Below the pieces are notes generated by a model. It had not been told where the DNA came from. It was given only the letters and a program-made list of their open reading frames with translations, and made no database searches. Of a stretch of 64,000 nucleotides of DNA, positions 3,069-61,625 are shown piece after piece; the first letter of the stretch is position 1; the number at the start of each line of letters is the position of its first letter. The translations under genes and the position numbers were made by a program. Source of the stretch: Escherichia phage EJP2; the sequence record OQ411014.1; one strand, given 5' to 3'.

Positions 3069-3866
3069 ATGAGAATCAAAGATATCAAAGATTACTCTCA
3101 TGCGACGAGAGCAGAAATCATCAGTATAGCCAAAAGCATACATCCACAATTACTGAACATCATCCAGTACCGAAGCCTTCAGGACGAATCCCTGTGTGAT
3201 AATCGTCTTACTGATATGTTCAATGAACAATTGCGTTCTAAAATCGATGCATATAAAATGCAGATGAAAGCAATGCGTACTCAGTACTTAGTAGAGTTCT
3301 TCGAGGATTATCTTCTTCTCGATGAAGGTTCTCCGTACGAGCACGACATGTACTATGGAATCGATTTGAACACAGGTAAGAAGCTCTCTAAGGCTTCGGA
3401 CTTCACTAACCCTACGTACGATGTGATTTATGTTCCAGAGGTTCAGAACGTCGTTGAGTGCGTTAATGCTATGCATACGTCTCATACTGACATTCGTCCG
3501 TTCTGGAATAAGAATTCATACACGATGTACAGTACTACAGAGCAGCATCACATCTATCCGTGCAAGAACGCAGAAGAGTTCATCAAGAGTGCACGTAAAC
3601 AATTCAGTACTTTACCTCATGAAAATGCTATCATGGATTTAGTTAGTACTGCTGCTAAGGTTCGGGACTTTGATTACCCACTACACTTCGCTGCGTTATC
3701 GTCTGGTGATGAGCGTTCGGTATATAGCAGTACTGTAATGAAATCCATTCAACGTCATCAAATCTTACGTGACTTCTTAGAAAGTGTTTACAGTCCTGAT
3801 GAAGTGTACTATACTAGTTCAGTTACAGAAGATGGGACATACAAGTTCTTTCCAAGCAATTACTAA
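3069..3866 (+). CDS. hypothetical protein
   Basis: 265-aa ORF with RBS GGAG. Confidence 0.55.
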   Translation: MRIKDIKDYSHATRAEIISIAKSIHPQLLNIIQYRSLQDESLCDNRLTDMFNEQLRSKIDAYKMQMKAMRTQYLVEFFEDYLLLDEGSPYEHDMYYGIDLNTGKKLSKASDFTNPTYDVIYVPEVQNVVECVNAMHTSHTDIRPFWNKNSYTMYSTTEQHHIYPCKNAEEFIKSARKQFSTLPHENAIMDLVSTAAKVRDFDYPLHFAALSSGDERSVYSSTVMKSIQRHQILRDFLESVYSPDEVYYTSSVTEDGTYKFFPSNY

Positions 3867-3878
3867 CGAGGATATATA

Positions 3879-4736
3879 ATGCGTTTGAGATTGGTTATTT
3901 CCAGTGCAGATGATCAGTTGTGGGTTAGGCCAGCGGACAGTACTAGACGTGTTCGTCTACCATCAGTTCATGGTCATACCTTTATTGTTGAGAACAAACA
4001 ATCAACATTAGAAGAAGCCTTTCGTCTATTCATTGGTGATTATGAATGTAAGCCATTCAATGACTATCATTGCACTTATGAAGTTGTTGATATTCCTGAT
4101 GAGTACATGTTCCAGTTGGCACTATTAGGCGTTCATGAGATGGACTTCCTTGTGTACAATAACGTCACTAAGAAAATGGCAATTTGTTCAGCAGTACATT
4201 TGGCTGTTGAATATACAATGGCAACTAATTCCAAGGTAGGTTATAACCAATCTTCTTATCGTAATAGTACTGCTACTACTAACGATGTTGTATTCCAGTG
4301 GGAGTACAAAAGTGACGAGTGGAAGACTAAGAACGATGATGTTACTGTTCATACAGTACTGGATAGTACTTATGATAATATCTATCAGTACATTGAGCCT
4401 AACCTAATGGAATGGGCTTGTAGGATGTACAGTAACATTGCTGATACTTTACGTCCTAGAGTTTATGGGTTCAAGAACTGGAAAAGTAAGATTGATACAT
4501 CTGATGAACCAGTAGCGTATGAAAAGTCCTACCCGTACTATAACTTCAGTGATTTATATTTCCTGTTCAATCAGTACTGCAACGATGAAGCGATGTTTTT
4601 GTACGCACAGGATGTAATCTCCGATTCAGCAATTGAGATATTGCGTGAACTGTACTGTCATTGTCAGTTTATCAGTACTAACATTCAGGTCGGCAAGGAT
4701 TACATAAAATTCTGTGATGAAAGAAGATCACGATAA
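3879..4736 (+). CDS. hypothetical protein
   Basis: 285-aa ORF with RBS GAGG. Confidence 0.55.
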   Translation: MRLRLVISSADDQLWVRPADSTRRVRLPSVHGHTFIVENKQSTLEEAFRLFIGDYECKPFNDYHCTYEVVDIPDEYMFQLALLGVHEMDFLVYNNVTKKMAICSAVHLAVEYTMATNSKVGYNQSSYRNSTATTNDVVFQWEYKSDEWKTKNDDVTVHTVLDSTYDNIYQYIEPNLMEWACRMYSNIADTLRPRVYGFKNWKSKIDTSDEPVAYEKSYPYYNFSDLYFLFNQYCNDEAMFLYAQDVISDSAIEILRELYCHCQFISTNIQVGKDYIKFCDERRSR

Positions 4737-4737
4737 T

Positions 4738-4767
4738 TTGAGCATTCATAAAAAAATGTGATATAAT
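4738..4767 (+). promoter_or_regulatory. sigma70-type promoter with extended -10 (TGaTATAAT)
   Basis: TTGAGC 4738-4743 and TATAAT 4762-4767; nearly identical to the promoter at 58672-58701. Confidence 0.55.
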
Positions 4768-4773
4768 TAGTAC

Positions 4774-5320
4774 TACGGATGGTTAGCTATCCGTATTTTA
4801 AATTTGAATGACCAGTACTACATACTGGTACGTTTTAACCCTGATTCACTCGAAAATGTAGAGGACAGTTGAGTACGCATTCAAGTACGTTCAGCAGAAG
4901 AAACCCGTTAGGTGTAGGCATAGTTTGTACCTCCCACGGCAATGTGGCTGATTAAACCATGAAGAGTAATACGATGACTCATGGCTTGCTTATGGCATGA
5001 TAGACATATAAGGATCGCTCCTTACCAAAATGTATAAGGGAATCTTATAAATTTTTGTAGGACTGATTAGAGGCTTACCCTTGATCCGTCCAAAATTTGA
5101 AGATACAGTACAGTACTGTTTATGTGGTAATGTATTGATGCGTGCTAAGACCACGACCGTTGCATAGAAACGCGATAGGAAGAAACAGGGCAACCCGCTT
5201 CCGTTCTTAATAGAAATTCGTAACATAAAATGATGACACATACCAGCGTCAAACTTTGTTCTTCCCTCCCTGTGGGGGGATGAAAATGAATCTACAAAAC
5301 CTCGTCAAATAATAATAAGA
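4774..5320 (+). ncRNA. candidate structured noncoding RNA, copy A (unknown class)
   Basis: 740-nt gap between + genes with its own promoter and no conserved reading frame; shares blocks with the locus at 58.7 kb (CACUCGAAAAUGUAGAGG, GAAACCCGU, CACGACCGUUG, AAACAGGGCAACCCG, ACAAACCUCGUCAA); stem GGAAG/CUUCC at 5178-5202 covaries with GCUGG/CCAGC in copy B. Confidence 0.45.
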
Positions 5321-5476
5321 AAGTACTAAATCAATTAGAACGAACGCTAGTGAGTGATAATTGATTTAGTAACAGTAACGCTTCGCTAGAAGTGTTACTC
5401 GTTGTTTAAGAATAAAATAACTTAGTGAGTTTTGGTTCTTTTGTTGTTCACTAAGTCCCTATAGAGAGAATATTAG

Positions 5477-5998
5477 ATGCCAGTGAAATATAAATCCCTT
5501 GATGGTGTTGTGAAGTACAAAGATCAAATGACTGAACAGGAATTACAAGAGTTCAGTGGGTACAAAATCGAGGGCAGTGCGGCACGTATTTCATACATTG
5601 AAGAGTACAAAGACGGAGATTTACTAGGGAAAATTATCCTTAGAATGACAAAAGCCCCAATCATATTTCGGGTAGTATACAAGGGATATAATGAAATTCG
5701 GTACAATACTGGAAGTGTTTCATCTAGATATTGCAGTAATGGTGATGTTTTTTGTGGTGAAATGCTGAGATATGATATGAATGGGAAGCTACAGGTTCGG
5801 GACTTTTTGAATCTAGGCAAGAACGTAACTGATGATATTGTTACTGAATTTGGTATCTCTGATATACTACAGCATGAATTTACAGAAGAAGAGTTATTCC
5901 GACTCTATATGAAATACGATTCAGGATTTAGATTCGTATCGGAATATAATAGAACTCCTGAACACTTCGATTCAGTACTGAAGGCGTGTTTGGAATAA
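5477..5998 (+). CDS. hypothetical protein
   Basis: 173-aa ORF. Confidence 0.55.
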   Translation: MPVKYKSLDGVVKYKDQMTEQELQEFSGYKIEGSAARISYIEEYKDGDLLGKIILRMTKAPIIFRVVYKGYNEIRYNTGSVSSRYCSNGDVFCGEMLRYDMNGKLQVRDFLNLGKNVTDDIVTEFGISDILQHEFTEEELFRLYMKYDSGFRFVSEYNRTPEHFDSVLKACLE

Positions 5999-6013
5999 TA
6001 GGATATACAATTC

Positions 6014-6532
6014 ATGGATGATAAAAAATCAAAGATGGATATACACTTTTCATCTAAAGCTCAAACTTGGAATACTCCAAGAGATTTATGGAATAAAATA
6101 AATGCAGTATGGAAGTTCACTCTAGATGCTGCGTGTTTAGAAAATAGTGCCTTGTGCGAAAAGTACTTCACTCCTGAAGACGATTCATTAGAACAGGACT
6201 GGGGTGATAACATAGTATGGCTTAACCCACCCTATAACGACCTCAAGACTTGGCTATCGAAGGCAGTACAGGAATATAAGAAAGGCTCTACAGTTGTCAT
6301 TCTGGTCCCTTCTAGGACGGATACAAAGGCATTCCAGGACTATGCTTCTAAAGAATGTTCGTGTATTTGTTTTATTAAGGGAAGACTCAAGTTCTTTGAT
6401 CCAGCTAGACCACCTGATGCGAGGGCAGACCCAGCACCATTCCCTAGCTGTTTGATAGTACTGGATGATGATCTTACACAAGAGAAAATCGATTTTCTAA
6501 AAACTCTAGGTCAGGTAATGAAGAATGTCTAA
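6014..6532 (+). CDS. DNA N6-adenine methyltransferase (phage Dam-type)
   Basis: NPPY motif (VWLNPPYNDLKTW) typical of amino-methyltransferases; size fits small phage Dam family. Confidence 0.6.
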   Translation: MDDKKSKMDIHFSSKAQTWNTPRDLWNKINAVWKFTLDAACLENSALCEKYFTPEDDSLEQDWGDNIVWLNPPYNDLKTWLSKAVQEYKKGSTVVILVPSRTDTKAFQDYASKECSCICFIKGRLKFFDPARPPDARADPAPFPSCLIVLDDDLTQEKIDFLKTLGQVMKNV

Positions 6533-7064
6533 ACGCTGTGTCTTTATGTTCGGCAGAATGAACCCGTGCCACCTCGGACACGGGAAAGTATTTGAAAAAG
6601 CACTACAACTAAAGGATAATGAAACTGATGTGAAGTTGTTCCTTAGTGCTTCGTTTGATCCTAAAAAGAATCCACTACCAAGAGAAGTTCGTCAGTACTA
6701 CATATCTGAGTTCTTCCCTGAAATAAAAGATTCTATACAAGATACAAACATAAACAATTTATTTGATATAATGAAATCACTTGATACTTATTATAGTGAT
6801 GTAATATTCGTAGGTGGTTCAGACAGGGCGAGTTCCTTCCAAGAACTACTACTGAAGTACAATAACAAACAGTACTCATTCGATTCTATCAGTACTGTAC
6901 TAGCTGGAACATCAAGAGAAGAATCTATGTTCAGTTCTACTCTAATGCGTAATGCAGTACAGAAGGACGATTTCAGTACTTTCAAGATATGTCTCCCTGG
7001 GGATAATGAATACTTGAAGTACGATATGTTCGCTGGTGTAAAGAAGTACATGAAAAATATTTGA
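6525..7064 (+). CDS. HxGH-family nucleotidyltransferase (cytidylyl/adenylyltransferase-like)
   Basis: N-terminal FGRMNPCHLGHG (GxFxPxHxGH) and C-terminal SSTLMR (ISSTxxR-like) motifs; overlaps the methyltransferase gene by 8 nt. Confidence 0.55.
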   Translation: MSKRCVFMFGRMNPCHLGHGKVFEKALQLKDNETDVKLFLSASFDPKKNPLPREVRQYYISEFFPEIKDSIQDTNINNLFDIMKSLDTYYSDVIFVGGSDRASSFQELLLKYNNKQYSFDSISTVLAGTSREESMFSSTLMRNAVQKDDFSTFKICLPGDNEYLKYDMFAGVKKYMKNI

Positions 7065-7678
7065 CACCTATCTATAGCCATGATACTATATGTACATGGC
7101 TATTTCTATATGAAGGTACTATAATGAAAGCAAAAGATCTGTTTGATATGGTTCACTCCAATCGTAAGCACCAATTGAATATTAATAGATCATTCAAGTT
7201 TGGTCACATGGATGTTACATATATAAAGTCATTTGGTTCTGATTTATTCTTGGTTGAGCTTGCTCAAGCTGGTAAATCTAAACGAGTATGTGAAATAATC
7301 TATTGTCCTCTCGAAGAAGAAAATGATACTTATGTTCCAGTTAAAGTATTTGATACTAAAGTCAAATTATCCAAGACTGAAATTGAGTTTGGTTTTCCGG
7401 TGGATGAAAAATTGAAGGATACAATTCGGTTTGTTCCGACTGATTTCAAAACTCCAGCATTTGATATAGACTTCAGTACTGAAGAATCGGCTTCACAAGC
7501 TATGTTCATTCATGATTTCGACCCCAAGAACTGTGAGTACCTAATGGCGGCTACACGTGCATTACAAGAAGTGTACCACCAGCCTGGATATGGGTACATG
7601 ATTATTTCGAGTACTTCTCCGGCATTACTGTGTGATGTACTAGGGATTGAAGTCCAAGTAGGAGTATACAATGCGTGA
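7061..7678 (+). CDS. paralogous early-gene family member
   Basis: C-terminal motif SASQAMFIHDFDP matching the shared E-x-x-F-Q/S-A-S/T-h-V-x-D/E-h-D module. Confidence 0.55.
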   Translation: MTPIYSHDTICTWLFLYEGTIMKAKDLFDMVHSNRKHQLNINRSFKFGHMDVTYIKSFGSDLFLVELAQAGKSKRVCEIIYCPLEEENDTYVPVKVFDTKVKLSKTEIEFGFPVDEKLKDTIRFVPTDFKTPAFDIDFSTEESASQAMFIHDFDPKNCEYLMAATRALQEVYHQPGYGYMIISSTSPALLCDVLGIEVQVGVYNA

Positions 7679-8222
7679 TAAAGTTCAACACATATTGAAT
7701 TGTATGCAGAAGAAAGTTCACGTTCAGAATGATGTACTTGATATGCAAGTATATACAATTCTATCTTCAGAAGATGGCGTGTTTAGTTCAACTATTCGAT
7801 GCCGCAATAAAAATAGCGGTTCCTTTACTATTATGCTAAGGAAGAAGACTGAAATGATTACTGCTCCTAGTTCAGTACTGGGACAAAACGACACATACAA
7901 TACAGTTTACACTTCTCTTGCAATGAAGATGGCAATCTTCTGTACGCATGGTAATCCCCTACACATTGTTCGTGGGGATAGTACAATAGGTGATGATGTC
8001 GTTCAGGATTTGAGTGACGAAGGTTTCTTTCGCTTGTTATTGGCAGTTGACCCGAAGTATAATATCGATATAGATGGGTACAAGCAGGTTCTTGAAATGA
8101 TTTATGCATTCGAAGAAGTAGTACCTGAAGATTGGACTATTGTTATTAGCTCACCATTAGATAATTTACATTCAATAGATGTTGATTCTATCTATTCAGT
8201 ACTGAAGGATGTCGTAGTATGA
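7671..8222 (+). CDS. hypothetical protein, possible family member
   Basis: DEGFFRLLLAVDP resembles the family motif; start overlaps the upstream gene. Confidence 0.5.
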   Translation: MRDKVQHILNCMQKKVHVQNDVLDMQVYTILSSEDGVFSSTIRCRNKNSGSFTIMLRKKTEMITAPSSVLGQNDTYNTVYTSLAMKMAIFCTHGNPLHIVRGDSTIGDDVVQDLSDEGFFRLLLAVDPKYNIDIDGYKQVLEMIYAFEEVVPEDWTIVISSPLDNLHSIDVDSIYSVLKDVVV

Positions 8223-8788
8223 ATGCCGCAGAGTTTGTTAGAGCACTTGTTGGTTTAGCTAAAGTGAAAACTTATAGAGGAAATATCACTAAATCAAATT
8301 CGCATTTTGTTCCACGTAATGGTCGTGAACATCTATTCGTTGATTCATTACTCATCAAGGGTATCGATGCATATGAAGAAATATACATTTCTATAGATAT
8401 GTGTGATGGATTCTTGAATTCCATTGCAGTTCATACAAGAAATAGATATACTCATTTCTCTATGTACAGAAAAACGGCATACACAGAGTATGATAAGTAC
8501 GCAATGGAAGAAACCTCCCCAGGGCGTTTCCTTATGCTTTTTCACAATGAAATTACCGAGCGTGATTTAATCATGAATCACAAGGGTGAATTTATTGTGC
8601 ACATGGACAATGAAAGTGAAGTGTTCAGTACTTTATTAGTACATAACTTCGATATAGAAAAGTACAGAGAAATTCATGAAACCTATAAGTGCATTGATGA
8701 ACTTAAAACTGACCTCTCATTCAGTACATATGATACTAATTGTGGTCTGAATTTCGCAGCACTATATCAAATTATATGGAAGGCATAA
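8219..8788 (+). CDS. paralogous early-gene family member
   Basis: motif ESEVFSTLLVHNFD; ATGA overlap with the upstream gene. Confidence 0.55.
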   Translation: MNAAEFVRALVGLAKVKTYRGNITKSNSHFVPRNGREHLFVDSLLIKGIDAYEEIYISIDMCDGFLNSIAVHTRNRYTHFSMYRKTAYTEYDKYAMEETSPGRFLMLFHNEITERDLIMNHKGEFIVHMDNESEVFSTLLVHNFDIEKYREIHETYKCIDELKTDLSFSTYDTNCGLNFAALYQIIWKA

Positions 8789-9309
8789 TGACTGCACTAA
8801 ATGATTTCATGACTCTCAGTACTGAAATAGTATCTTCTACAAAGGGAGAAATCACAATCCCCCGTGATGATGTATATATTATACTAACACCAGGAATAGC
8901 AGAGTCCATAAAAGTATACGAAAATAATGATTCTTTACAAGTACTGTACATGCCACAAGATTATCTTTTTGTAAATTCTGATTTTACTTTACATCAATTT
9001 CCTACGTATAGTAATTTTCAACAACGTTTCCCAAGTGATAAAACAAAAGAAATAAAATACGTACAGTACGATAATAGTTTTAAAAGTCGTACTCATTTTA
9101 TCGCTTTAGAAACTGAAGAAGATATATTCAATGCTATGATAGTACATTCATTTGATATAAACGCAGCACTAGAATTGATGAGTGTATTGACTGAAGTACC
9201 GGAAGATGTAACAGGTATTATTACTATAAGAACTAAGTACAATGAAGAATTGTTACTAAAGTGCAACAGTATGATGCGAGATTATATTAGTAATAAGGAA
9301 AACACATGA
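8788..9309 (+). CDS. paralogous early-gene family member
   Basis: start moved to the ATG overlapping the upstream TAA (N-terminus MTALNDF parallels MTVLNDF of the next gene); motif EEDIFNAMIVHSFD; close paralog of 9306-9836. Confidence 0.55.
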   Translation: MTALNDFMTLSTEIVSSTKGEITIPRDDVYIILTPGIAESIKVYENNDSLQVLYMPQDYLFVNSDFTLHQFPTYSNFQQRFPSDKTKEIKYVQYDNSFKSRTHFIALETEEDIFNAMIVHSFDINAALELMSVLTEVPEDVTGIITIRTKYNEELLLKCNSMMRDYISNKENT

Positions 9310-9836
9310 CAGTACTGAATGATTTTCTTAGAGATAGTAAGTACATTATTGATAATATTGCTGAAGAAATATCTATACCATCAATGGATGAGTTGATGAT
9401 GATATCAATGGACCCTGATGGTGGGTTGGTAAAAGTATATTACGATTTTGAACTGCACGTAATGTTCATGAAAAATCATTATGAACACGCTTCTGATATG
9501 TTGACACTTTATGATTTTGGGACGCATAAAAATTACCAACAACGTTTACCAGCAAACAAATCAAAGGATATGAAACTAAGTGTTTACAATTCTGCTGGTG
9601 TTACTATTCCGACTAAGATTTCTCTTGGTTCTGAAGAGGGAATCTTTTCTGCGGAATTAGTACATGATTCCAGTACTGAAGAAGCACTTGAAGTTATGCA
9701 AGTAATTTCTGAAGTACCTGACAGTACCAAAGGAATACTTACTATAAGAAATAAGTACAACGAACGATTACTTATAAAATGTAATGTGTTATTAGAACAA
9801 TATATACATGGAGTACTGAATGCAAATATGGTATAA
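9306..9836 (+). CDS. paralogous early-gene family member
   Basis: motif EEGIFSAELVHD; internal FGTHKNYQQRLPANKSK parallels FPTYSNFQQRFPSDKTK of the previous gene. Confidence 0.6.
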   Translation: MTVLNDFLRDSKYIIDNIAEEISIPSMDELMMISMDPDGGLVKVYYDFELHVMFMKNHYEHASDMLTLYDFGTHKNYQQRLPANKSKDMKLSVYNSAGVTIPTKISLGSEEGIFSAELVHDSSTEEALEVMQVISEVPDSTKGILTIRNKYNERLLIKCNVLLEQYIHGVLNANMV

Positions 9837-10113
9837 TGTAGTACAGAAGGATTGGGATGATAATGAAAAGACAGGGATGCGTTTCATTTCTGTTATCATT
9901 TCGAATGAAACTCGTTATGTTCTACGAGCGGATAAGAATGATGGCGTATGGGAATCATCTTTGTATCCAATGGGTTACAAATATTCTTTAGATGATGTTG
10001 CAAGTCTAGCTGATTCTATGATAGACTCAGTAAAGATTATGAAGTTCCTTGAACGTCCAGAGCTAACAACGGCTGATGATGTACAGGAATTTTTGGCGAC
10101 TTTACAAGGGTAA
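9820..10113 (+). CDS. hypothetical protein
   Basis: 97-aa ORF. Confidence 0.45.
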   Translation: MQIWYNVVQKDWDDNEKTGMRFISVIISNETRYVLRADKNDGVWESSLYPMGYKYSLDDVASLADSMIDSVKIMKFLERPELTTADDVQEFLATLQG

Positions 10114-10115
10114 TT

Positions 10116-10634
10116 ATGAAACTTTCTGACTTCATTGCACGCAAAGATTCGTTCAAAAATGGCGTTTTTCATCAAGTAGAAGGTACTGACTTTACATATA
10201 TCAGTACTAGTATTGGATTGGGAGAAGCATCGAGTATCGTATCTTTTTATACAAAAGAAACACTTGCTATATGTGATTTTGTATTTTCAACTAAACATTA
10301 TAATACCACAGACAATGCAATTATGTTCGATGCAAACTCAGTGAATGATGCTTGGTGTGTATATTTTTCTTATCCAAATACAAATGAAAATATAGTATTA
10401 TTCTTGGATGATTCAGAAGATAACGAGCCACCAGTACTGGTAGATATCTCATCAGAAGCGGATATCTTCACTAAAGCAGTAGCATTCGATATAAATTGTG
10501 ATGGTATTGAAGAGTACATTTCGATTTCCAAAGCAATCGAAAAAATTGCCAAGGATTTGGGATTACCGGAATTTACTCTAGAACTTCGTCACAATAAACT
10601 GAAGGAATTTCTTGAGATATTTGAACTATGCTAA
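10116..10634 (+). CDS. paralogous early-gene family member
   Basis: motif EADIFTKAVAFDIN. Confidence 0.55.
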   Translation: MKLSDFIARKDSFKNGVFHQVEGTDFTYISTSIGLGEASSIVSFYTKETLAICDFVFSTKHYNTTDNAIMFDANSVNDAWCVYFSYPNTNENIVLFLDDSEDNEPPVLVDISSEADIFTKAVAFDINCDGIEEYISISKAIEKIAKDLGLPEFTLELRHNKLKEFLEIFELC

Positions 10635-10873
10635 TAATTGACAATTTAGACATACCTGGTGAATTCGAAGTACTCGAAGGGATTAGTATGAGTACGTTCG
10701 TAATAAAAAGTACTGAAGCGTGGGTGAAAAAACACTTGACTGAATTAGGGTTATCCGATACACTACACTTCTTTAGTTACAGTACTGGAGATTTAGTTTT
10801 AGAATCGACAAGAGCGAGGATTACGAGTTTAAGTTCTAAGCGATTTTATGTTGAATTTATGGAAGGAGAATGA
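10628..10873 (+). CDS. hypothetical small protein
   Basis: 81-aa ORF overlapping both neighbours by a few nt. Confidence 0.45.
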   Translation: MLIIDNLDIPGEFEVLEGISMSTFVIKSTEAWVKKHLTELGLSDTLHFFSYSTGDLVLESTRARITSLSSKRFYVEFMEGE

Positions 10874-11442
10874 CAATGATCAATAGTAATACTTATATGC
10901 GTTACCTACGTATGGGCGTTTCTTTAGTTCCAGTTCGTGGAAAAGATTCAGTAGACCAAGAGTTCGCATATGCGATGCCTATTGATGGTGTACAGTACGT
11001 ACTGAACGATGGTGGTATGTACGAAGATACAAATGAGTCCGAAGACATGTCTGATATGCTTCAGAACTTATTAGCAGTAGTCAATAGTGACCGTCATGAT
11101 AAAGTAAAACGCGTTACTACGTTCCTGGAAAAGAATCTACACAAAACTGTTTGGTGTGAGATTGCTTCTGGACCACAACTGGGTTTGCTATTCGGGAACG
11201 CAGATGGTACAATTTGTCAATTAGCGATGGATTTCCGTTCTCCAGAGCAGTTCCAAGAGTACCGTGCATCTATCATCGAACACTTTGCAGCACTCGGTCT
11301 TGACGAATCTAAGATTCCAGAAATTAGTCCAATGGATACATTTGTACTGATTCCTGAGAGTCCAGCATTCGAAGCACTATTCAGTACTTTCCAGTGCTTA
11401 GGGATTGAAGTAAGTCCAGCAGATGTAGATGATGAAGAATAA
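10870..11442 (+). CDS. hypothetical protein
   Basis: 190-aa ORF with acidic C-terminus. Confidence 0.5.
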   Translation: MTMINSNTYMRYLRMGVSLVPVRGKDSVDQEFAYAMPIDGVQYVLNDGGMYEDTNESEDMSDMLQNLLAVVNSDRHDKVKRVTTFLEKNLHKTVWCEIASGPQLGLLFGNADGTICQLAMDFRSPEQFQEYRASIIEHFAALGLDESKIPEISPMDTFVLIPESPAFEALFSTFQCLGIEVSPADVDDEE

Positions 11443-28661: not shown

Positions 28662-29081
28662 TTATTCGTCATCTTTGTTGACAAAATCCAAATCTAGTAC
28701 ACTAGGTGGTGGTACATTACAAAAATATAAATCCCACGGTTTGTAGATTGATTCACCTGAACTTAACTTAATTTTGTGCGTTTGAAATGAAGTAACAAAT
28801 GCTTGATCTATTCGCATAAAAAATGTATTCTTACCAAGCAATGTAGACAGTACTGAATCAGATGCACTTGTGTCCAAGTACTGACCATCTTTATCAGTAT
28901 ATGTCAATCTGATAAAGCTGAAAATATTACCATCAGTGTCAACTAAATCAAAGGTGTTATCAGAGCGTTGTCTGAAAATATTGATGTTGTTTTTGATTAC
29001 ACCATTAATGTTTGCAACTGGGACACAGAATCCACCAATACTAAAAGGTAGTTCACCTCTACCTGCAATCACTTTTGCCAT
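28662..29081 (-). CDS. hypothetical protein, N-terminal paralog of the 29920-30576 gene
   Basis: one of only two convincing minus-strand genes; N-terminal region alignable with the Ig-like protein at 29920-30576. Confidence 0.55.
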   Translation of the reverse strand: MAKVIAGRGELPFSIGGFCVPVANINGVIKNNINIFRQRSDNTFDLVDTDGNIFSFIRLTYTDKDGQYLDTSASDSVLSTLLGKNTFFMRIDQAFVTSFQTHKIKLSSGESIYKPWDLYFCNVPPPSVLDLDFVNKDDE

Positions 29082-29238
29082 ACTATATCCTTTTATAAAA
29101 AACTGGTCATAAAATGACCTACATAATATTTATGTTACTTGTTCATTTTTTGTACAGCTAATGCTAAATAAATTTATATTGACACTGATAAGCAAACATG
29201 CTAGAGTAATCATCTTACACATTCATTGTAGAGGGTAT

Positions 29239-29919: not shown

Positions 29920-30576
29920 TTACGCCCCCAAAATAGTAACATTACATTGTGCAGTAAAATTACCATCAACACTAGTTGCTGTTATAATAGCATTCCCAGC
30001 CAACAAACCAGTGACCAGACCAGAATCAGAAACTGAAGCTACTGTTGGTTCGGAAGATTCCCACAGTACTGATTGGTTTGTAGCATCCTCTGGTGTGAAA
30101 ATTGGCGTGAGTTGGTCAGTTTCACCTGTCTGAATAGAAGATGTTACTTTATTCAATGCAAGACCAGTAACATACACTGAACGATCACGTTGACTTGCAT
30201 AAGAATTAAGATAAAATGATGAACCATCGCCTAGGATGATTTTATTTAAGAATAGTTTTATTGCAAAACCGACCAGTTCATCTTTTTCTGGATCATATAC
30301 CTTAATACAAAATTTACCAGGGTCAAGTTTAGCAGCAAGTTCTTCATCGGTATCACTTAGCAATAACGGTTGTTTGTTCTTATCCAAAGCTGTTATTTGA
30401 AGAAATTCATATAGTGAATCACCAGTTTTGGATTGCAAGTCAAACATGATAGTACTTCTCTGTTTTGATATATTAATAGTAGTTAGTTCTGTACCATCTT
30501 TCAATACGGCAGCGTTGACATTTATACCCGAAATATCGAACGGAAATTGGTCGCGGCGAGCAATTGGTTTACCCAT
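29920..30576 (-). CDS. Ig-like (Big_2-type) domain protein, possible virion decoration or adhesin
   Basis: C-terminal ~70 aa match the Big_2 pattern (SVLWESSEPTVASVSDSGLVTGLLAGNAIITATSVDGNFTAQCNVTI). Confidence 0.6.
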   Translation of the reverse strand: MGKPIARRDQFPFDISGINVNAAVLKDGTELTTINISKQRSTIMFDLQSKTGDSLYEFLQITALDKNKQPLLLSDTDEELAAKLDPGKFCIKVYDPEKDELVGFAIKLFLNKIILGDGSSFYLNSYASQRDRSVYVTGLALNKVTSSIQTGETDQLTPIFTPEDATNQSVLWESSEPTVASVSDSGLVTGLLAGNAIITATSVDGNFTAQCNVTILGA

Positions 30577-30633
30577 TGTAACCTCCTTATAGTTTACAAT
30601 TTTAAATATTTATCCATAATGTGCTAAAAAAAC

Positions 30634-48803: not shown

Positions 48804-48826
48804 AGGCTCCTTTATGGAGCCTTTTC
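48804..48826 (+). terminator. intrinsic terminator
   Basis: AGGCTCC-TTTAT-GGAGCCT followed by a T run. Confidence 0.65.
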
Positions 48827-48840: not shown

Positions 48841-48848
48841 TATAAATA
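48841..48848 (+). promoter_or_regulatory. T4-late-promoter-like TATAAATA box
   Basis: exact TATAAATA 34 nt upstream of the fibre-like gene start. Confidence 0.3.
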
Positions 48849-48881
48849 AGTTATCGGATATCTATAACTAAGGGATATGAA

Positions 48882-51581
48882 ATGACTAAAAGAATTTATG
48901 GAGGCTTAGACGTTACTCATAACGTAACAGTTCAGGGCAAAAGGACAGTACAAGGTATCAATAATCAAGTATTCGATGCGAATGGTGATATGAAGATTAA
49001 TACCTATACTCAACAGGAATTACTCGATATTGTTAGCTTAATGCCAATATCACACTACGGTACTCACAACTACTTACCTGCTGGTGTTAGTGGGGACTTT
49101 AATGGTGCAGCGGAGAACCCAGCACAACGTAGAAACAAAATCCTACTGGAGAACGATGGTACACTAGTAATGCTACGTGCTGGTACAAACGGCAGTGTAG
49201 AAGGTTTATTCTATGCTTACCTACCAAATGCACTATCAGTTACTGATTTAGGTAGAGGTGTAAACACTGGTCGTCAGTACAAGCCAGGTTATTTTGGTAG
49301 TACTAAAACTGCTTTCGGTTTGTATAATACAGATGAGAACATTCTTCTAGGAAGATATTCTGATTCGTCAAATGGCAGTACTGGATGGTTTATTTCCATT
49401 ACTAACGGAACACTAGATGACACACAACATAATGGTTTCTTCTTGAATGCTTATACTGATATTGCCCCTCAAGGTGGTGTTGAATATGCAATGATGGCAG
49501 AAGATGGTTCAATTTACGTATTCAGTGTAGATACAAGTAATAACGAATTTAATATTGCAGTTGTTAGAGTTACTTTCAATTTGACGAATAAAACTTACAC
49601 AGCGTCAAGAATCACTGGTTGGACAACCAAGACGTTCTATAATACTACATATTCAGCAGATACTAATATTGTAGTGACGAAGAAAGTAAACTCAACTAAT
49701 ATCGCTGATAAGCCATATATGTACGTTCCGAATGGACTACTTGGTTTAGGTGTATACATGACGTCAATTGACTTGTGTGTAGCACAACAGCCAGGTACAC
49801 AGAACTTCCGCTTTAGAGTTAATGGTGATGCGTGGGCTACTATGGCAACGTATAATACCAGACCACAGCACAGTTATAGTTTCAACTTCAATATGAGTAC
49901 TAAACAATGTACGCTGGATGCAGGGAATGACATTGGTTCAAACGCAGCACCATTTATTGTTACTAATACAGGTTCACAATTAATTGCTTCTGGTAACGTA
50001 ATCAACCAAGATGATTTATATAATCACGGTGGGTGGAGAAACATTTATAGTTCTTACTATTACTTGGATATTGGTACAGTATTCTGTACTACGAGTCCTA
50101 ACTTGTCAGAACCATTGGGGATTGAAAAAGCAACATACCCAGCACAAAGTGTTTACAGTATGCTTAACGTAAGAGCAGTCAATGCATCAGCATTCAATAA
50201 AGGGAATCTTGGTCCTTCGTTCGGTTCAGCAGTTGGTTCTTACATTAACGGCGTAGAATTACTACCAGGTAACAGTACTAAACAATTCTCTCGTTCTTCT
50301 GGTACTGGTGCATTTAGACCATCATATGCAGTACATGCTGCTTCACCTACCTTTACGTTTAAATCTCTTTCAAGAGGTACAATGAAAGGTTATGAGCCTA
50401 CTGCTGAACGTGATTTCATTACAGATAATATAAACAACCGTATTTTCATTAGTACTGTATCTGGTTCGAATGTTACGACAAATGGTGGGATTTTCATGGT
50501 TGGTCAACGTTATTCACAGTCTTTGTCATTTGACAAACATGGTGTTGGTACTGGAACAATCTCGGTCACTGATTCAGTACTGGTAAATTTCAGAAATTCT
50601 GAATATGCAAAAGTACCTGCTTCATGGAATCTTTCTACAGCAGCAACTAAAGATATGACACTATTTGTTCCACAACAAACTGATATTCCTGCTTTTGTAA
50701 TGTTAAGTACTGTTACTACTGGAAATAAAAACTATATTAAGATTGTGGAAGTGAACGTTAATACCAGAAGTGGTAATATTACTTCAATTAGTTTTAAGCG
50801 TAATGTAATTGAAAACGTTTATGGTGATAGTTTTACACCAAATGGTGCTGGTGGTTTTGCTTCATCTTCTGTAGGTTTAACAATATATGATGGCGGTTCG
50901 TTCTACTTTATTGGTGGTTCAGATCCTTTATCTCACCCAACAATTGGCAATACGAATACACATCAATTCAGAGCTATTGTTACTAAAAGTACTGCACAAT
51001 TTGACAGCTTTATTATTTCAGGTTCACATGCTAGTTATGAACAGGGTATTCAACCTGCTGCTCTTCCTGGTATTGGCTTTGGGTATTTCCAAGCAATTGA
51101 CTACTCAAACAAAATGACATTCCAGAAATGTGGTACTACTGTTGCTGAATATAATGCATGGACAGCAATTGGTGATCCAATTAACGTAGTTTCACAAGAC
51201 GTTGCACAAGGATTTGTTGTTTACTTCAACGAAGAAACACCAGTAATGCTCAGTGGTAAGTCATTTACGATGCCAGTTCAAAGTGTTGATTTGAAAACTA
51301 TTAAAGCTAACCCAGCGAATACGACATTCCACATTTATGTGAGAATGAACCAAGGTAATGCAGAATATCATATAACTACTGAAGTTATTTCCGAAACTGG
51401 TAGTACTGCATATAACGTATTCTGGATTGGTACTGTTACTACGGATGCTATCCAAATCTCGACTATTAATGTATTCAAGCGTTCTCGTTTGGATGTATTT
51501 GGTGCATCACTTGAACCAACCGGATCATCATTCCCAGTGAGTTATGGTCTACCATCAGGCAACGGAACAATTAACTGGTAA
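48882..51581 (+). CDS. tail fibre / receptor-binding-like structural protein
   Basis: 899 aa, S/T/N/G/Y-rich and poor in charged residues; C-terminal ~110 aa module shared with the next two genes. Confidence 0.6.
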   Translation: MTKRIYGGLDVTHNVTVQGKRTVQGINNQVFDANGDMKINTYTQQELLDIVSLMPISHYGTHNYLPAGVSGDFNGAAENPAQRRNKILLENDGTLVMLRAGTNGSVEGLFYAYLPNALSVTDLGRGVNTGRQYKPGYFGSTKTAFGLYNTDENILLGRYSDSSNGSTGWFISITNGTLDDTQHNGFFLNAYTDIAPQGGVEYAMMAEDGSIYVFSVDTSNNEFNIAVVRVTFNLTNKTYTASRITGWTTKTFYNTTYSADTNIVVTKKVNSTNIADKPYMYVPNGLLGLGVYMTSIDLCVAQQPGTQNFRFRVNGDAWATMATYNTRPQHSYSFNFNMSTKQCTLDAGNDIGSNAAPFIVTNTGSQLIASGNVINQDDLYNHGGWRNIYSSYYYLDIGTVFCTTSPNLSEPLGIEKATYPAQSVYSMLNVRAVNASAFNKGNLGPSFGSAVGSYINGVELLPGNSTKQFSRSSGTGAFRPSYAVHAASPTFTFKSLSRGTMKGYEPTAERDFITDNINNRIFISTVSGSNVTTNGGIFMVGQRYSQSLSFDKHGVGTGTISVTDSVLVNFRNSEYAKVPASWNLSTAATKDMTLFVPQQTDIPAFVMLSTVTTGNKNYIKIVEVNVNTRSGNITSISFKRNVIENVYGDSFTPNGAGGFASSSVGLTIYDGGSFYFIGGSDPLSHPTIGNTNTHQFRAIVTKSTAQFDSFIISGSHASYEQGIQPAALPGIGFGYFQAIDYSNKMTFQKCGTTVAEYNAWTAIGDPINVVSQDVAQGFVVYFNEETPVMLSGKSFTMPVQSVDLKTIKANPANTTFHIYVRMNQGNAEYHITTEVISETGSTAYNVFWIGTVTTDAIQISTINVFKRSRLDVFGASLEPTGSSFPVSYGLPSGNGTINW

Positions 51582-51590
51582 GGAGAAATT

Positions 51591-52178
51591 ATGCCATTAC
51601 AATACAGAACGGACGTGAACGCAGCAGGACAAATTAAAGTACAGAATAAAACAACTGGTGTTTCTATTACATCAGGTAACGGTCAAGTATATTCTACAAC
51701 ATCTGCGGGGGCGATTACGTTCCCAGTACTGACAACTGATGATGTGGATTATATTACACTTGAATTACCACTCTCTCAGTTCGGAGAATTGTATGAGAAT
51801 ACTAGTCTTAATATTACAAGTACTGGTTTAGTACTGAAGTTTAATAGAATAATTCCACTCTTCATGAGTGGGATTTACTACGATGTTCCAGTTCAGAACA
51901 TCACAGCACAAGCTGCAACGTCAGGTACAGCAACATATTATGTGTATGTTAAACTAGAACTTGGTGCACCAAAATATTTCATCTCCAGAACAGAAGGTGT
52001 TGAGAACGAAATAACCATGTTCATAGGTACTATCACAGTAAGTACTACCACAATAACAGCAATCAATATTAACAAAGTTTCCAGATTCGGTACATACAGA
52101 CCGAGTACTACACAGAAAGGTTCTTCTTTCCCTGTCAGTACTGGACACCCTTCACAAACTGGTTCAATTAACTGGTAA
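51591..52178 (+). CDS. short paralog carrying only the fibre C-terminal module
   Basis: 195 aa; C-terminus RFGTYRPSTTQKGSSFPVSTGHPSQTGSINW matches the endings of both flanking large proteins. Confidence 0.55.
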   Translation: MPLQYRTDVNAAGQIKVQNKTTGVSITSGNGQVYSTTSAGAITFPVLTTDDVDYITLELPLSQFGELYENTSLNITSTGLVLKFNRIIPLFMSGIYYDVPVQNITAQAATSGTATYYVYVKLELGAPKYFISRTEGVENEITMFIGTITVSTTTITAININKVSRFGTYRPSTTQKGSSFPVSTGHPSQTGSINW

Positions 52179-52187
52179 GGAAATAAC

Positions 52188-54941
52188 ATGTCATCTAAAA
52201 GAGTAATAGGTTCAGTTGAGTTTTTAAGTAACTTAGCTGTAAATGGGAAATACGCAATGCGTTCCTTTAATGGTGTCAATCCAGATGCCAATACTGGTAT
52301 AATCACTTATCCATTTTATACCAGAGAAGAAGTTCAGAAGATTCTCGATATACTCCCTGTTTCACGTATAGGTGAAATGGACTATCTACCACCGAACGTA
52401 AGTGGTTCCTTTAGTGGAGCTACTTCATTCTCGAATGATCGCAGAGTTCAGCCATGTATTATTGAAGATGATGGTACAGCCGTAATTATTCGCCCTGGTA
52501 CGAATGGTAGTCAGTTTGATTTTTATTATGCTTACATCCGTAACGTCAGAAATATCCCAACTCTAACACAAAGTGATATTGTTCAGACGAATACCAGATA
52601 TCACCCATCATATCTTACTAGTACTCAAAAGATTGAACAATTTTACGGTACTGATGGATATGATCTTCTTTGGTACAGAGTTTCTGACTCAGTTAATAGT
52701 TCAAACTATTTTGCAATTACATTAACTAACGGTTCCTTTAACGTAGTAGGTCACCAACATGCTCTTATTCCACAAACATCTATGCCTAATTTCACACCAG
52801 CATATGCTCATATCGTGAATGGTTCAGTATACATGTGGGGCTATGACAGTACTTTAGGTTCAGGTAGAGCATTGAAGTTATACACTATCCCAACTAGTTC
52901 GTTGCGTTCTGGTGTTACTACTGGTTTAACTGCTGTCACTGGATTTAATGGAAAAACTATCAACGGTAATGCTTATACAGCAGCCAGTACTGCTAGGATT
53001 TATGATACATATGCAAGTACTACCAGTACTGCTGATTGCTTAATTCAATACACGTCTAACATGTATTCTCCTGAATATCACGACTACGCCATCTCCAATG
53101 CAATGGCGGCTGGTAATGCTGATAATACACAGATTCGTTTCACTATGTTCCCTACATATCGTTACGGTTCTGCGTATGGTTTTAGTGGTATATTCATGTA
53201 CGCAATTAGTTTAGTCTATAATATCAGTACTAAAACATTTACGTACGATACTACATCTTTAGGTAAAATTGTGGTGAATGCTACACTAAATGGTTCTACA
53301 ATGACCTATACAGAAACTGCTAACCCATATTTGGTTGATGCAACTTCATGGCGTGGTTTTGGTGCAAGTCTAGGTAACTGTGGAACAATCTGTCAAGCAG
53401 GTGATGGTTTCATGGTGAGTACTCGCTCTCGTTGGGCAAGTTCTGCTCCTTACGGTGTCAGTACTTCTAAGATTAATAACTTTACTTCTCAATTCGATTC
53501 TATTAAAATGACTGGTAGAAGTGTTACTGCAAATACTCAACTATTTGCTAACCCAATCTACGGTTCTGCAATTGGTGAGAACTTGATGGGTCCACGTCTG
53601 TTAAGTAAAACTCGTATGATTCTTGCATGTTCAGGTACATACGATGGTGTATCCAACGCAAGCTATGACAATACTGTAGTTGCGGACTTCGGTACTGATT
53701 CGAACTTCTCATACAAGTCAATGACTCAAGGTACACTTACTGGGTATGCACCACAAACGTATCGTAAATTCGCTAATAATGACAACTTCAGACTATCAGA
53801 ATTAGTAACACTAATGGACAGTACTGGTAATGTTCAAGCAAGTAGTACTGCATTCATCGAGAACGTTAAGTACACTGGTGGGATTGGTATTAACCCTGAT
53901 ACACTTGAATACACTGGCAGTACTGTTAATATGTCCAATGCAGTTATCCAATCACTTAAACAAGGTATTGCAACTTCTGCTGGTATTCCATTGAATACAA
54001 GTTTGCTTACAGTGTATTACATTCCTGATACATCATATTGCAATCACCAAGCAGTACTAATGGTTCGTAATCCTGATAACACTGGCGTTGTAGTACTAGC
54101 TGAAATGAATTTAACTACAAGTACTTCTGGAAGTACAATTACTGTTACTGGTGGTTCTGTAATAAGAACTTTCGTTCAGAACAGACCAAATATTACTTCA
54201 GTAAATGGTGGGAACTACGCTCGTAACGTTGGTGTTTGTGCTGGTAAATTCAGTGGTTTTAATTACCTTAGTGTTCACTCAGCGAATAACTTTGGTGTTC
54301 CTGGTGATGCAAGGTCTTATTCGTTCTTTGCAAAAGTTAAGGGTGGTGCTATAGTATCACAGAGAATCGATGAGTCCTATTATTCACAGACATATGGCAG
54401 GACTGGTGGTTTCCTACCAGGGAAAGGTTTCGGTTATTATGATAACTCAGTGAGTGATTACCAGACCAAATCCGTGTTCCAACTCTTCGGTACTACTGAA
54501 GCACAGATGGATGCACTAATTGCTGGTACTGGAACATCAACACCTGTTGTTGTTATGTCTCAAGAAGTTCCTGAAGGTTTTAGTGTTTACTTTACACAAG
54601 AACTACCAGTATTCTTAGGTGGTATGTACGATAAGCTACCAATCCAGACAGTTGATTTGAGAACTATCAAAGCTGATCCATCCAATACTACTTTCTATAT
54701 CTACGTATCAATGGATAGAAGTAAAGGTGAAGCATCATACGTTATCAGTACTGCACTCTTGGATGAAACTCTAACCAGAGCATTCATTGGTACTATTGTG
54801 ACTATTGATGCAGGTATTGACCGGATTGATGCAGAGAAGGTAACACGCTTCTTGACTTACAGACCAAGTACTTACAAGAGGGGTTCTGCAATCCCTGCGA
54901 GTACTGGTGTTCCATCTGGGACTGGTTCACGCTGGCATTAA
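52188..54941 (+). CDS. tail fibre / receptor-binding-like structural protein
   Basis: 917 aa; shares VDL(K/R)TIKA(N/D)P...TTF(H/Y)IYV and C-terminal motifs with 48882-51581. Confidence 0.6.
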   Translation: MSSKRVIGSVEFLSNLAVNGKYAMRSFNGVNPDANTGIITYPFYTREEVQKILDILPVSRIGEMDYLPPNVSGSFSGATSFSNDRRVQPCIIEDDGTAVIIRPGTNGSQFDFYYAYIRNVRNIPTLTQSDIVQTNTRYHPSYLTSTQKIEQFYGTDGYDLLWYRVSDSVNSSNYFAITLTNGSFNVVGHQHALIPQTSMPNFTPAYAHIVNGSVYMWGYDSTLGSGRALKLYTIPTSSLRSGVTTGLTAVTGFNGKTINGNAYTAASTARIYDTYASTTSTADCLIQYTSNMYSPEYHDYAISNAMAAGNADNTQIRFTMFPTYRYGSAYGFSGIFMYAISLVYNISTKTFTYDTTSLGKIVVNATLNGSTMTYTETANPYLVDATSWRGFGASLGNCGTICQAGDGFMVSTRSRWASSAPYGVSTSKINNFTSQFDSIKMTGRSVTANTQLFANPIYGSAIGENLMGPRLLSKTRMILACSGTYDGVSNASYDNTVVADFGTDSNFSYKSMTQGTLTGYAPQTYRKFANNDNFRLSELVTLMDSTGNVQASSTAFIENVKYTGGIGINPDTLEYTGSTVNMSNAVIQSLKQGIATSAGIPLNTSLLTVYYIPDTSYCNHQAVLMVRNPDNTGVVVLAEMNLTTSTSGSTITVTGGSVIRTFVQNRPNITSVNGGNYARNVGVCAGKFSGFNYLSVHSANNFGVPGDARSYSFFAKVKGGAIVSQRIDESYYSQTYGRTGGFLPGKGFGYYDNSVSDYQTKSVFQLFGTTEAQMDALIAGTGTSTPVVVMSQEVPEGFSVYFTQELPVFLGGMYDKLPIQTVDLRTIKADPSNTTFYIYVSMDRSKGEASYVISTALLDETLTRAFIGTIVTIDAGIDRIDAEKVTRFLTYRPSTYKRGSAIPASTGVPSGTGSRWH

Positions 54942-54954: not shown

Positions 54955-54983
54955 GAGGTTGTCTATTGACAGCCTCTTTTTTT
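54955..54983 (+). terminator. intrinsic terminator
   Basis: GAGGTTGTC-TATT-GACAGCCTC followed by a T7 run. Confidence 0.65.
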
Positions 54984-54994
54984 CTTGATATAAT
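54966..54994 (+). promoter_or_regulatory. sigma70-type promoter overlapping the terminator
   Basis: TTGACA 54966-54971 lies in the terminator stem; TGaTATAAT ends at 54994. Confidence 0.5.
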
Positions 54995-60782: not shown

Positions 60783-61144
60783 ATCCGTTCGTACTAGAAG
60801 ATATGCTGTGTAAGTACTTTGAATTCAACATGTACAATAAAGAAAAATTGGCCCCTTGGGACGAAAGATGTTTGTTCGAAATATTGAGGCATAATTTTGA
60901 AGATGAACGCAGTCTATATGATACAGTACTGAAGTTAGTTGATATACTTAGTTCTACATTTGACGAACAGGTATTTGTGGCTTCATACCCAAGTAATTAT
61001 AGTGCTGTAGTTCATCCAAATGTTGTTTACCTTGATGAATTTGCATTCGGAAGAACATATCCAGAATGCAAAATTATCATTGCGTTCAACTATATGAATG
61101 TTGATGTTTCTTATAATGGTGTCCTTAGATATATAGTAAGATGA
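60716..61144 (+). CDS. hypothetical protein (start uncertain)
   Basis: track ORF overlaps the upstream gene by 67 nt; the true start is probably internal. Confidence 0.4.
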   Translation: MENRMDIYDVPGSIRVYDESRVNPFVLEDMLCKYFEFNMYNKEKLAPWDERCLFEILRHNFEDERSLYDTVLKLVDILSSTFDEQVFVASYPSNYSAVVHPNVVYLDEFAFGRTYPECKIIIAFNYMNVDVSYNGVLRYIVR

Positions 61145-61178
61145 TAAATATTCTATATCATTATATGAGGATTATTTT

Positions 61179-61625
61179 ATGAGCGATTTTGATGCAGCAG
61201 TAGATATGCGTAACATACTGGATTACATGGATGATACAGTACAAGAGAACGGTTCTTCTGAACTACTTGAGTTCGTTGAGGATTGTATCTTTTTGGAATC
61301 ATTGAGTCACCACTGGCACTTACAGTGTAAGATTTATTCCAAACATATGGAACTCGATGAACTATACAAAGAAATTGGTGAATACGTTGATTCCTTCATT
61401 GAAGGACTAATGAGTACTCGTGGTGTTCTACCTATGGTATCGGAGAAGCAATACTTCTTCGTAGGATTAGATCAATGTATTCCAGTACTGGAACAGTACG
61501 TACAACAAGCTAAAGTCATCCATGAGATGTTAGCTGCTGAAGATGATTTCGGTTCAGTGAATAGTATTGAAGACATTATTAGTTTTCTAGAACGTACTCT
61601 TTACAAACTGAAGTGTCTAGACTAA
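61179..61625 (+). CDS. hypothetical protein
   Basis: 148-aa ORF. Confidence 0.5.
   Translation: MSDFDAAVDMRNILDYMDDTVQENGSSELLEFVEDCIFLESLSHHWHLQCKIYSKHMELDELYKEIGEYVDSFIEGLMSTRGVLPMVSEKQYFFVGLDQCIPVLEQYVQQAKVIHEMLAAEDDFGSVNSIEDIISFLERTLYKLKCLD

Follow-up and report, generated by a model that had tools for sequence, protein, structure and literature searches.

The genes designated here A, B and C lie side by side on the forward strand of a 64,000-nt stretch of Escherichia phage EJP2 (OQ411014.1; hereafter the window, positions in which serve as coordinates), and we consider them, with a probability of roughly 0.55, to be a late-expressed host-recognition cassette whose products belong to the tail or baseplate periphery and whose conserved ends form a shoulder-type assembly and docking unit. 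DNA identity of the region to the Asteriusvirus jumbo phages PBECO4, phAPEC6, Turkey5 and 121Q is only ~72-74%, so the source appears from its sequence to be a jumbo phage that is a distinct relative of this group. An open reading frame (ORF) check returned the three genes that an earlier sequence-only reading of this DNA had reported, all in forward orientation (Table 1), and the richness in serine, threonine, asparagine and glycine noted there amounts to 38% of residues in A, B and C versus 21-26% in neighboring genes.

Paralogy within the trio extends further than the shared C-terminal module on otherwise diverged bodies that had been described. A and C are full-length paralogues whose alignment runs from one terminus to the other (949 columns, 28% identity, E = 6e-67); both match a single PHROG profile over their full length (phrog_3573; E = 1.5e-246 for A and 1.2e-206 for C), as does B with phrog_26864 (8.3e-63), both being PHROGs of unknown function. 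The C-terminal similarity itself holds, with 41% identity over 122 residues between B and C (E = 7e-21) and 36% between B and A (E = 3e-19), and it is not the low-complexity artefact considered as a possible refutation, because the entropy of the module is normal (~4.0 bits versus 4.19 for NrdD), a profile made from it recovers 605 protein clusters and AlphaFold2 predicts a confident fold. Among 33 orthologues, pairwise identity is 0.60-0.65 over residues 1-120 and 0.63-0.76 over residues 751-899, and it is lower in the body (0.34-0.60, mostly ≤0.46); comparison of A-type with C-type paralogues again gives conserved ends and a variable middle. The C-terminal module is the best-conserved part of the protein. 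The conservation of the C-terminus, which had seemed atypical, was therefore correctly seen, and the picture was incomplete in that the N-terminal ~120 residues are equally conserved; neither end is the one that varies among relatives. Both termini probably act together. Amino-acid identity among the three phages compared is 72-75% for A, 56-63% for B and 47% (to Turkey5) for C, which varies most. The module profile also scores a weak second hit within the body of A (residues 586-661, about 50637-50864; independent E-value 0.008-0.056), which may reflect an internal shoulder-like beta-sandwich, or chance.

The module is a domain uncatalogued in Pfam and NCBIfam. A 127-position profile retrieved 605 clusters at E ≤ 1e-3, and 441 at E ≤ 1e-10, from 1.84 billion cluster representatives; tblastn placed the module in 176 phage records, and among the matches listed all are jumbo phages of 210-390 kb. 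Its carriers include Rak2-like phages, Agricanvirus, EL-like phages, OBP, RisingSun-like phages, Aeromonas and Klebsiella jumbo phages and SPN3US-like phages; phiKZ has no detectable module. Among the 216 sequences retrieved, 202 carry the module with its end ≤10 residues from the C-terminus, and the carriers fall into two main size classes of 850-1050 aa (134 proteins) and 150-300 aa (48 proteins, the smaller carriers being called minis here). A scan of A, B, C and six distant homologues against Pfam and NCBIfam gave no match, weak hits to Cerato-platanin, HapK and SdpB being far under the cut-offs and discarded, and neither single-sequence phmmer nor profile searches of all PDB sequences returned a match to the module.

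A second conserved element, a helix followed by the motif [LIF]P[LIV][ST]x[YFW]G, stands 15-20 residues before the module in nearly all complete minis (~195 and ~235 aa). In large proteins the motif lies within the first 130 residues in 115 of 156 cases and at 130-400 in 19 more, which have N-terminal extensions. The ~235-aa minis (P0090, P0114, P0158, P0168, P0190, P0199 and P0216) and Goslar gp28 (3219-3728 of the Goslar stretch examined) carry, ahead of this helix-LPxSxxG element, an extra motif NPHGVTxAQ(I/L)G, which may be a second shared attachment motif; phiKZ gp131 has the similar VHGLTAADINLG. In a minority of the family, namely Special G gp20 (SG20; 4616-8071), SPN3US gp168 (2071-7254), P0135, P0144, P0166, P0171, P0181 and P0205, the module sits inside the protein, and another 150-590 residues, with no Pfam match, come after it; these extensions may be distal binding domains, an order of shoulder and then head as in canonical receptor-binding proteins (RBPs).

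AlphaFold2 modeled B with a confident all-beta core at residues ~65-165 (predicted local distance difference test, pLDDT, mostly 83-96), the N-terminal helix being of low confidence and the tail reaching a pLDDT of only ~35 although it holds the most conserved motif of the module. The predicted module consists of the two four-stranded antiparallel beta-sheets and long helix that define the shoulder-domain fold, and its top fold matches are exclusively phage and type VI secretion system (T6SS) baseplate or receptor-binding proteins. Shoulder domains dock the RBPs of phages p2 and 1358 and the T6SS protein TssK to their baseplates, and the cavity of the shoulder trimer takes up a peptide or loop of the baseplate partner, the Dit arm or the TssG loop (PMC7291167, PMC6300606). 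Of the functions proposed earlier for the C-terminal module, that of a shared attachment region is thus favored by its conservation and by its predicted fold. The body of A was modeled as all-beta and globular (mean pLDDT 86), with structural matches to five- and six-bladed beta-propellers including sialidases and GH43/GH130/GH32-type enzymes, so the description of these genes as fibre-like does not fit, and A and C are predicted to be globular beta-propeller proteins, not fibres. A Foldseek search of the full PDB found no solved protein sharing the overall architecture, and A, B and C have no Pfam match to any glycoside hydrolase (GH) or lectin family.

Gene B is more than the isolated module it had been taken for, since its residues ~1-70 share homology with the large paralogues at their N-termini (profile positions 14-62, independent E-value 7e-5). 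At the equivalent site the more distant phage CBB (Mimasvirus) has three full-length paralogues, CBB_147 (902 aa), CBB_148 (916 aa) and CBB_149 (916 aa), of which the first shares 47% identity with A and the last 34% with C. The module of B is closest to that of CBB_148 (48.7% identity, E = 3e-35, versus 37-38% to CBB_147 and CBB_149), and residues 1-70 of the two proteins align at 35% identity (E = 9e-10). Because B matches CBB_148 best at both ends, it is the middle large paralogue after an in-frame loss of ~725 body residues. Its orthologues form 23 clusters extending down to 43% identity, almost all of 192-202 aa and with many invariant residues, and the ratio of nonsynonymous to synonymous substitution rates (dN/dS) is 0.28-0.33 for B, 0.31 for C and 0.13-0.16 for A, values that are approximate as dS is saturated. 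This pattern suggests that B is maintained by purifying selection.

Virion and tail association is taken from publications on relatives. The A orthologue of phAPEC6, gp323c, was found in the virion proteome with 4 peptides (5.6% coverage); it is the only member of the trio annotated in record MK817115.1, the B orthologue (7751-8338 of the stretch examined, 195 aa) and the C orthologue (~8265-11084, 939 aa, from an upstream GTG) being intact, unannotated ORFs that were therefore unidentifiable in the mass spectrometry (MS) search of that paper. In GAP32, MS of virions picked up GAP32_144 and GAP32_145, which are homologous to CBB_148 and CBB_149 (CBB paper, Table S1, supplement S5). SPN3US gp168 was assigned to the tail, within a "gp131-like" paralogue family, by comparison of mutant particles (PMC5105663, PMC5694885); in this 1727-aa protein the family body occupies residues 558-874 and the module residues 1283-1401. 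In EL114/115, OBP143/144 and Agricanvirus SG19 the N-terminal ~260 residues are homologous to phiKZ gp131, gp133, gp134 and gp135 (E from 1.5e-21 to 5e-4), with an A/C-type body and module behind, and in the phiKZ electron cryomicroscopy atlas gp131-type N-domains dock twelve peripheral fibres as paralogue hetero-hexamers (PMC13250141). Goslar gp26 (867 aa) belongs to the family over its full length (E = 1.2e-76) and also has a weak BLAST match to phiKZ gp132 (E = 3.7e-4); together with the mini gp28 (169 aa) it sits between the tail-fibre genes gp25 (Peptidase_S74) and gp29, whose products the Goslar study regarded as probable peripheral-baseplate or fibre components, the density of the peripheral baseplate being unresolved there. 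No virion MS entry for gp26 or gp28 was found in the supplementary text of that study.

Several further connections were tried and dropped. PhiKZ gp27 (898 aa, outer-baseplate core) matches neither the module profile nor the full-length profile, and its length is a coincidence. Identity of A, B and C with the "hairy whiskers" of CBB and phAPEC6 has no support, because all three paralogues are present in GAP32, a phage in which the CBB authors expected no whisker genes. A conserved trio of one mini plus two large proteins does not extend to phiKZ-like phages, as EL ORF113, OBP_142, EL116 and OBP_145 lack the module; the rule of three is confined to the Rak2-like group, and Goslar has one large protein and one clear mini. 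Beside the module-bearing tandem pair of EL, OBP and Special G stands a conserved gene of ~330 aa on the opposite strand (EL ORF117, OBP_146, Special G gp21; pairwise E = 2e-60 to 8e-29 between EL, OBP and Agricanvirus), annotated in OBP as "baseplate assembly protein".

The genomic position of the trio points in the same functional direction. phAPEC6 and RaK2 share the gene order phiKZ-ORF260-like, RSL1-like, nrdD, small ORF(s) and nrdG. Next after nrdG come A, B and C in phAPEC6 and in the window; in RaK2, nrdD and nrdG are followed by ORF524 and then by the RBP cluster ORF525w-534, which is preceded by a 53-aa ORF. RaK2 ORF526-534 constitute an RBP/depolymerase system whose protein lengths match those given in PMC6872550, and the orthologues in PhiK64-1 were experimentally verified (PMC6872550); the module was not found in any protein of the RaK2 tailspike cluster. 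The slot after nrdG thus appears to be a host-recognition cassette replaced non-homologously between lineages, and such a replaceable slot would account for the position of structural genes among metabolism genes.

As noted in the sequence-only reading, a TATAAATA box resembling the T4 late promoter precedes gene A. The octamer occurs once in the 64 kb versus 6.9 copies expected, and its core ATAAATA is about four-fold depleted (6 copies in the window versus 25.8 ± 4.9 expected), consistent with selection against spurious late promoters. The core stands at the equivalent position in Turkey5 (CATAAATA), phAPEC6 and CBB, and a hairpin equivalent to the one upstream of the box lies 5' of CBB_147 and of phAPEC6 gp323c. 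A gp55-like sigma factor (CBB_244 in CBB) and the motif upstream of structural genes have been reported in CBB and GAP32 (PMC5259590). The late-promoter idea thus gains from the conserved position of the motif, its depletion, its place ahead of virion-structural genes and the sigma factor of CBB. On these sequence features A-B-C appears to be one terminator-bounded operon behind a conserved T4-like late promoter motif, which would make its expression in Escherichia phage EJP2 late. The consensus sigma-70 promoter downstream of C seems to mark the end of the late unit and to lie outside it; its -35 hexamer falls inside the terminator hairpin of C (54955-54994), a compact terminator-promoter switch from late to early unit.

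The same motif is found elsewhere in the window. The only substantial minus-strand genes, 28662-29081 and 29920-30576, are paralogues (34% identity, E = 6e-13) that both match "virion structural protein" PHROGs, the second with a major-tail-protein-type immunoglobulin-like domain, and ATAAATA lies 45 and 30 nt upstream of them (29127-29133 and 30607-30613, both on the minus strand); they look like further isolated late genes inside the forward-reading region. A forward copy at 61144-61150 precedes by 28 nt a phrog_858 homologue ("starvation-inducible transcriptional regulator", 61179-61625, forward strand), and the motif is therefore not confined to structural genes.

We propose that A, B and C form one late-transcribed operon encoding virion proteins for host recognition. 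In this proposal A and C would present variable all-beta bodies of ~690 residues, propellers of the lectin, sialidase or glycoside-hydrolase type, which judging from the predicted models would be the likely glycan-binding or glycan-processing part. The N-terminal element (helix plus LPxSxxG) and the C-terminal module would together constitute the assembly and docking unit into which the propeller body is inserted; that the two ends form one unit we infer because minis have them contiguous and because of the ancestry of B and the conservation profile. B would then be the docking unit alone, kept by selection after loss of the body, and would probably act as a subunit or adaptor lacking a body, either assembling together with A and C or taking equivalent docking sites. 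The location, oligomeric state and ligand of the three proteins we infer as well, including trimerisation, the docking partner, the role of the conserved C-terminal tail, sugar binding and co-assembly; what the analysis shows is how the genes are related, where their domains begin and end, which parts are conserved, how widely the family occurs, how the operon is laid out, that the motif is conserved and what folds the predicted models match. Co-assembly of paralogues through shared domains has a precedent in phiKZ (PMC13250141). A more specific version, which we regard as unlikely in this exact form, is an A+B+C hetero-oligomer, most simply a 1:1:1 heterotrimer round a three-fold shoulder core in which each docking domain is split by a double-propeller insertion of ~690 residues and B is the "blank" position; such a complex would be non-fibrous and asymmetric.

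Several observations weigh against the reading that we favor. Canonical RBPs and TssK carry the shoulder at the N-terminal, proximal end; both models have low confidence in the N-terminal ~70 residues and the C-terminal tail; the similarity to beta-propellers is generic; and the EL, OBP, Agricanvirus and SPN3US homologues have the gp131-type N-domain as a known anchor, so that in them the module may be distal or a branching platform instead of a baseplate anchor. The polarity could accordingly be reversed with the virion role kept, the N-terminal element anchoring the protein and the module acting as a distal trimerisation clamp, branching platform or carrier of an extra head. This arrangement would suit EL114/115, OBP143/144, SG19 and SPN3US gp168, where the domain that docks fibres is far from the module in sequence, as well as the residues that continue beyond the module in SG20, SPN3US gp168, P0135, P0144 and P0166, and the lack of the conserved tail in Goslar gp26 and gp28. 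We nevertheless consider this main rival somewhat unlikely, since the Rak2-like proteins lack a gp131-type domain (comparison of the N-terminal element of A, B and C with a gp131-family segment by hhalign gave a probability of 31%, and the resemblance is not claimed), variation is normally greatest at a distal end in contact with the host yet the module is the part that varies least, and the retention of both ends in B fits a combined unit equally well.

The virion evidence comes from relatives, and the MS detections that lend support to the structural role envisaged earlier are offset by the failure to detect CBB_147-149 in CBB's own virion MS; the low-coverage phAPEC6 list also holds the non-structural thymidylate synthase and RecA, and the Agricanvirus MS was discarded as virion evidence since crude lysates were used, which report expression only. 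These points, the enzyme-like propellers (sialidases, GH43/GH130/GH32) and the location among nucleotide-metabolism genes would all suit carbohydrate-active enzymes or lectins that are soluble and expressed late, for instance set free at lysis to break down or bind polysaccharide of the host surface, with the MS detections as carry-over. Such a role is improbable given the independent detection in GAP32 virions, the mutant-particle assignment of SPN3US gp168 to the tail, the fusion to a gp131-type baseplate-docking domain in several lineages, the baseplate and RBP fold matches of the module, the RaK2 RBP cluster in the equivalent slot, and the absence of a signal peptide and of a lysis context. 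It is less likely still that B is a functionless, decaying remnant of a deleted paralogue: its origin by loss of most of a CBB_148-type gene and its faster evolution relative to A would fit, but its dN/dS resembles that of C, its length and invariant residues hold across all 23 clusters, its Shine-Dalgarno sequence overlaps the stop codon of A, and stand-alone minis of like design, including Goslar gp28, occur in other lineages. Least probable of all is a role of the module as an intramolecular chaperone or autoproteolytic region that is lost once folding is complete, in the manner of endosialidases and the T5 fibre, a function also floated in the sequence-only reading and suggested by the C-terminal position and by the last ~30 residues, which are conserved and predicted to be disordered. 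Neither Peptidase_S74 nor any other Pfam or NCBIfam family was matched in A, B, C or the six homologues, the fold matches are shoulder and not chaperone domains, B would be an almost wholly discarded chaperone, and the module is internal in some family members.

Table 1. Features of the A-B-C locus (positions in the window; aa, residues of the encoded protein).
Feature	Position	Strand	Remarks
Terminator-like hairpin	48804..48822	+	7-bp stem, 5 G-C pairs, then TTTCTATTAT T-run; would end the nrdD-nrdG unit
TATAAATA T4-late-promoter-like motif	48841..48848	+	33 nt upstream of A ATG; putative A-B-C promoter
Gene A Shine-Dalgarno AAGGGA	48870..48875	+	AAGGGATAT kept in all three aligned phages
Gene A	48882..51581	+	899 aa; orthologue of phAPEC6 gp323c and CBB_147
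Gene A N-terminal element	48882-49121	+	aa 1-80; helix 44-53, motif MPISHYG
Gene A all-beta propeller body	49122-51176	+	aa ~81-765; predicted model
Gene A shoulder-like beta-sandwich module	51177-51488	+	aa ~766-869
Gene A conserved tail	51489-51578	+	aa 870-899; predicted disordered in monomer
A/B junction	51579..51593	+	stop TAA overlaps B Shine-Dalgarno (TAAGGAG), 9-nt spacer
Gene B	51591..52178	+	195 aa; orthologue of CBB_148, ~725-aa body deleted in frame
Gene B N-terminal element	51591-51800	+	aa 1-70; helix 49-58, motif LPLSQFG
Gene B shoulder-like module	51801-52088	+	aa ~71-166
Gene B conserved tail	52089-52175	+	aa 167-195
B/C junction	52176-52190	+	form as A/B: stop overlaps Shine-Dalgarno, 9-nt spacer
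Gene C	52188..54941	+	917 aa; full-length paralogue of A; orthologue of CBB_149
Gene C N-terminal element		+	aa 1-~85; followed by variable body
Gene C module and tail	54555-54938	+	aa 790-917
Terminator-like hairpin	54955..54976	+	9-bp stem and T-run, directly 3' of C
Perfect sigma-70 consensus promoter	54966..54994	+	TTGACA, 17 nt, TG-TATAAT; would serve downstream non-structural genes

Upstream, A is neighbored by genes for NrdD (PF13597, E = 1.5e-163) and an NrdG-type radical S-adenosylmethionine activase, and downstream of C lie genes for a DUF4326 protein and an RlaP-family nucleotidyltransferase. Tandem paralogues with overlapping stop and start codons occur at two more places in the window, 8740-9309/9306-9836 (40% identity, E = 1e-37) and 59731-60291/60288-60782 (27% identity, E = 8e-13).

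Published annotations and MS tables gave genes of the A, B and C types no other name than "hypothetical" or "structural" protein, and in every record examined the A/C homologues bear generic labels alone ("hypothetical protein", "structural protein", "minor tail protein"). The literature searched yielded no paper on the family, and in the libraries and literature searched we found no description of the module as a jumbo-phage shoulder-like domain, of its C-terminal and probably split placement, of an origin of B by body deletion, or of a correspondence between this locus and the RBP cassette of RaK2. Therapy and biocontrol are uses for which Rak2-like and Asteriusvirus jumbo phages are being isolated, and of their host-recognition proteins only the RaK2/PhiK64-1 depolymerases have been assigned; the present analysis supplies concrete further candidates, two propeller proteins and a body-less partner, and defines an uncatalogued domain in more than 600 protein clusters with a structural rationale as a shoulder-type docking unit. 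The slot downstream of nrdG becomes recognizable as a swappable host-recognition cassette and an evolutionary marker, and B as a natural experiment in which parts are needed once the body is lost. If our proposal is true, host range could be engineered by exchange of propeller bodies between conserved ends, and the unresolved peripheral-baseplate density of chimalliviruses such as Goslar would gain gp26 and gp28 as candidates. A heterotrimer, if it exists, would represent an RBP architecture not described before and shared by Rak2-like jumbo phages in general, and the stand-alone minis of other jumbo lineages would be a modular building block.

The predicted fold of the module resembles the shoulder domain found in the RBPs of lactococcal phages p2 and 1358, SPP1 gp22 and T6SS TssK, and the N-terminal element plus module repeat its composition of a helix and then a beta-sandwich, while sequence similarity is undetectable by phmmer and profile searches. 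Known shoulder domains are N-terminal and followed by neck and head, whereas the beta-sandwich of A, B and C stands in the C-terminal part with a conserved 30-residue tail after it, and in A and C, unlike in known shoulder domains, it is apparently split from the N-terminal helix element by an insertion of ~690 residues. The phiKZ gp131-135 family resembles A and C in comprising tandem jumbo-phage paralogues in which a propeller domain follows a conserved assembly region; the gp131-type N-terminal domain (~250 aa) is missing from A, B and C, and phiKZ gp131-135 lack the A/C body and module, the two being combined in SPN3US gp168, EL114/115, OBP143/144 and SG19. The octamer ahead of A is identical to the gp55-dependent T4 late promoter; in contrast to T4, homologues of gp33 and gp45 are reported absent in CBB, and the sigma-factor gene lies outside the window. 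B is a conceptual analogue of the truncated second RBPs of the Klebsiella KP32 type, in which the receptor-binding part was lost, the attachment part kept and the gene retained (PMC6872550); the sequences are unrelated, and the KP32-type proteins were shortened from the C-terminus, whereas B lost an internal stretch and still has both termini. Finally, the multi-tailspike cluster of RaK2 and PhiK64-1 is, like A-B-C, a multi-gene occupant of the slot after nrdD-nrdG away from the main structural module, and it differs in that its members are non-homologous beta-helix tailspikes, which bear N-terminal anchors along with conserved peptides and branching domains like those of T4 gp10.

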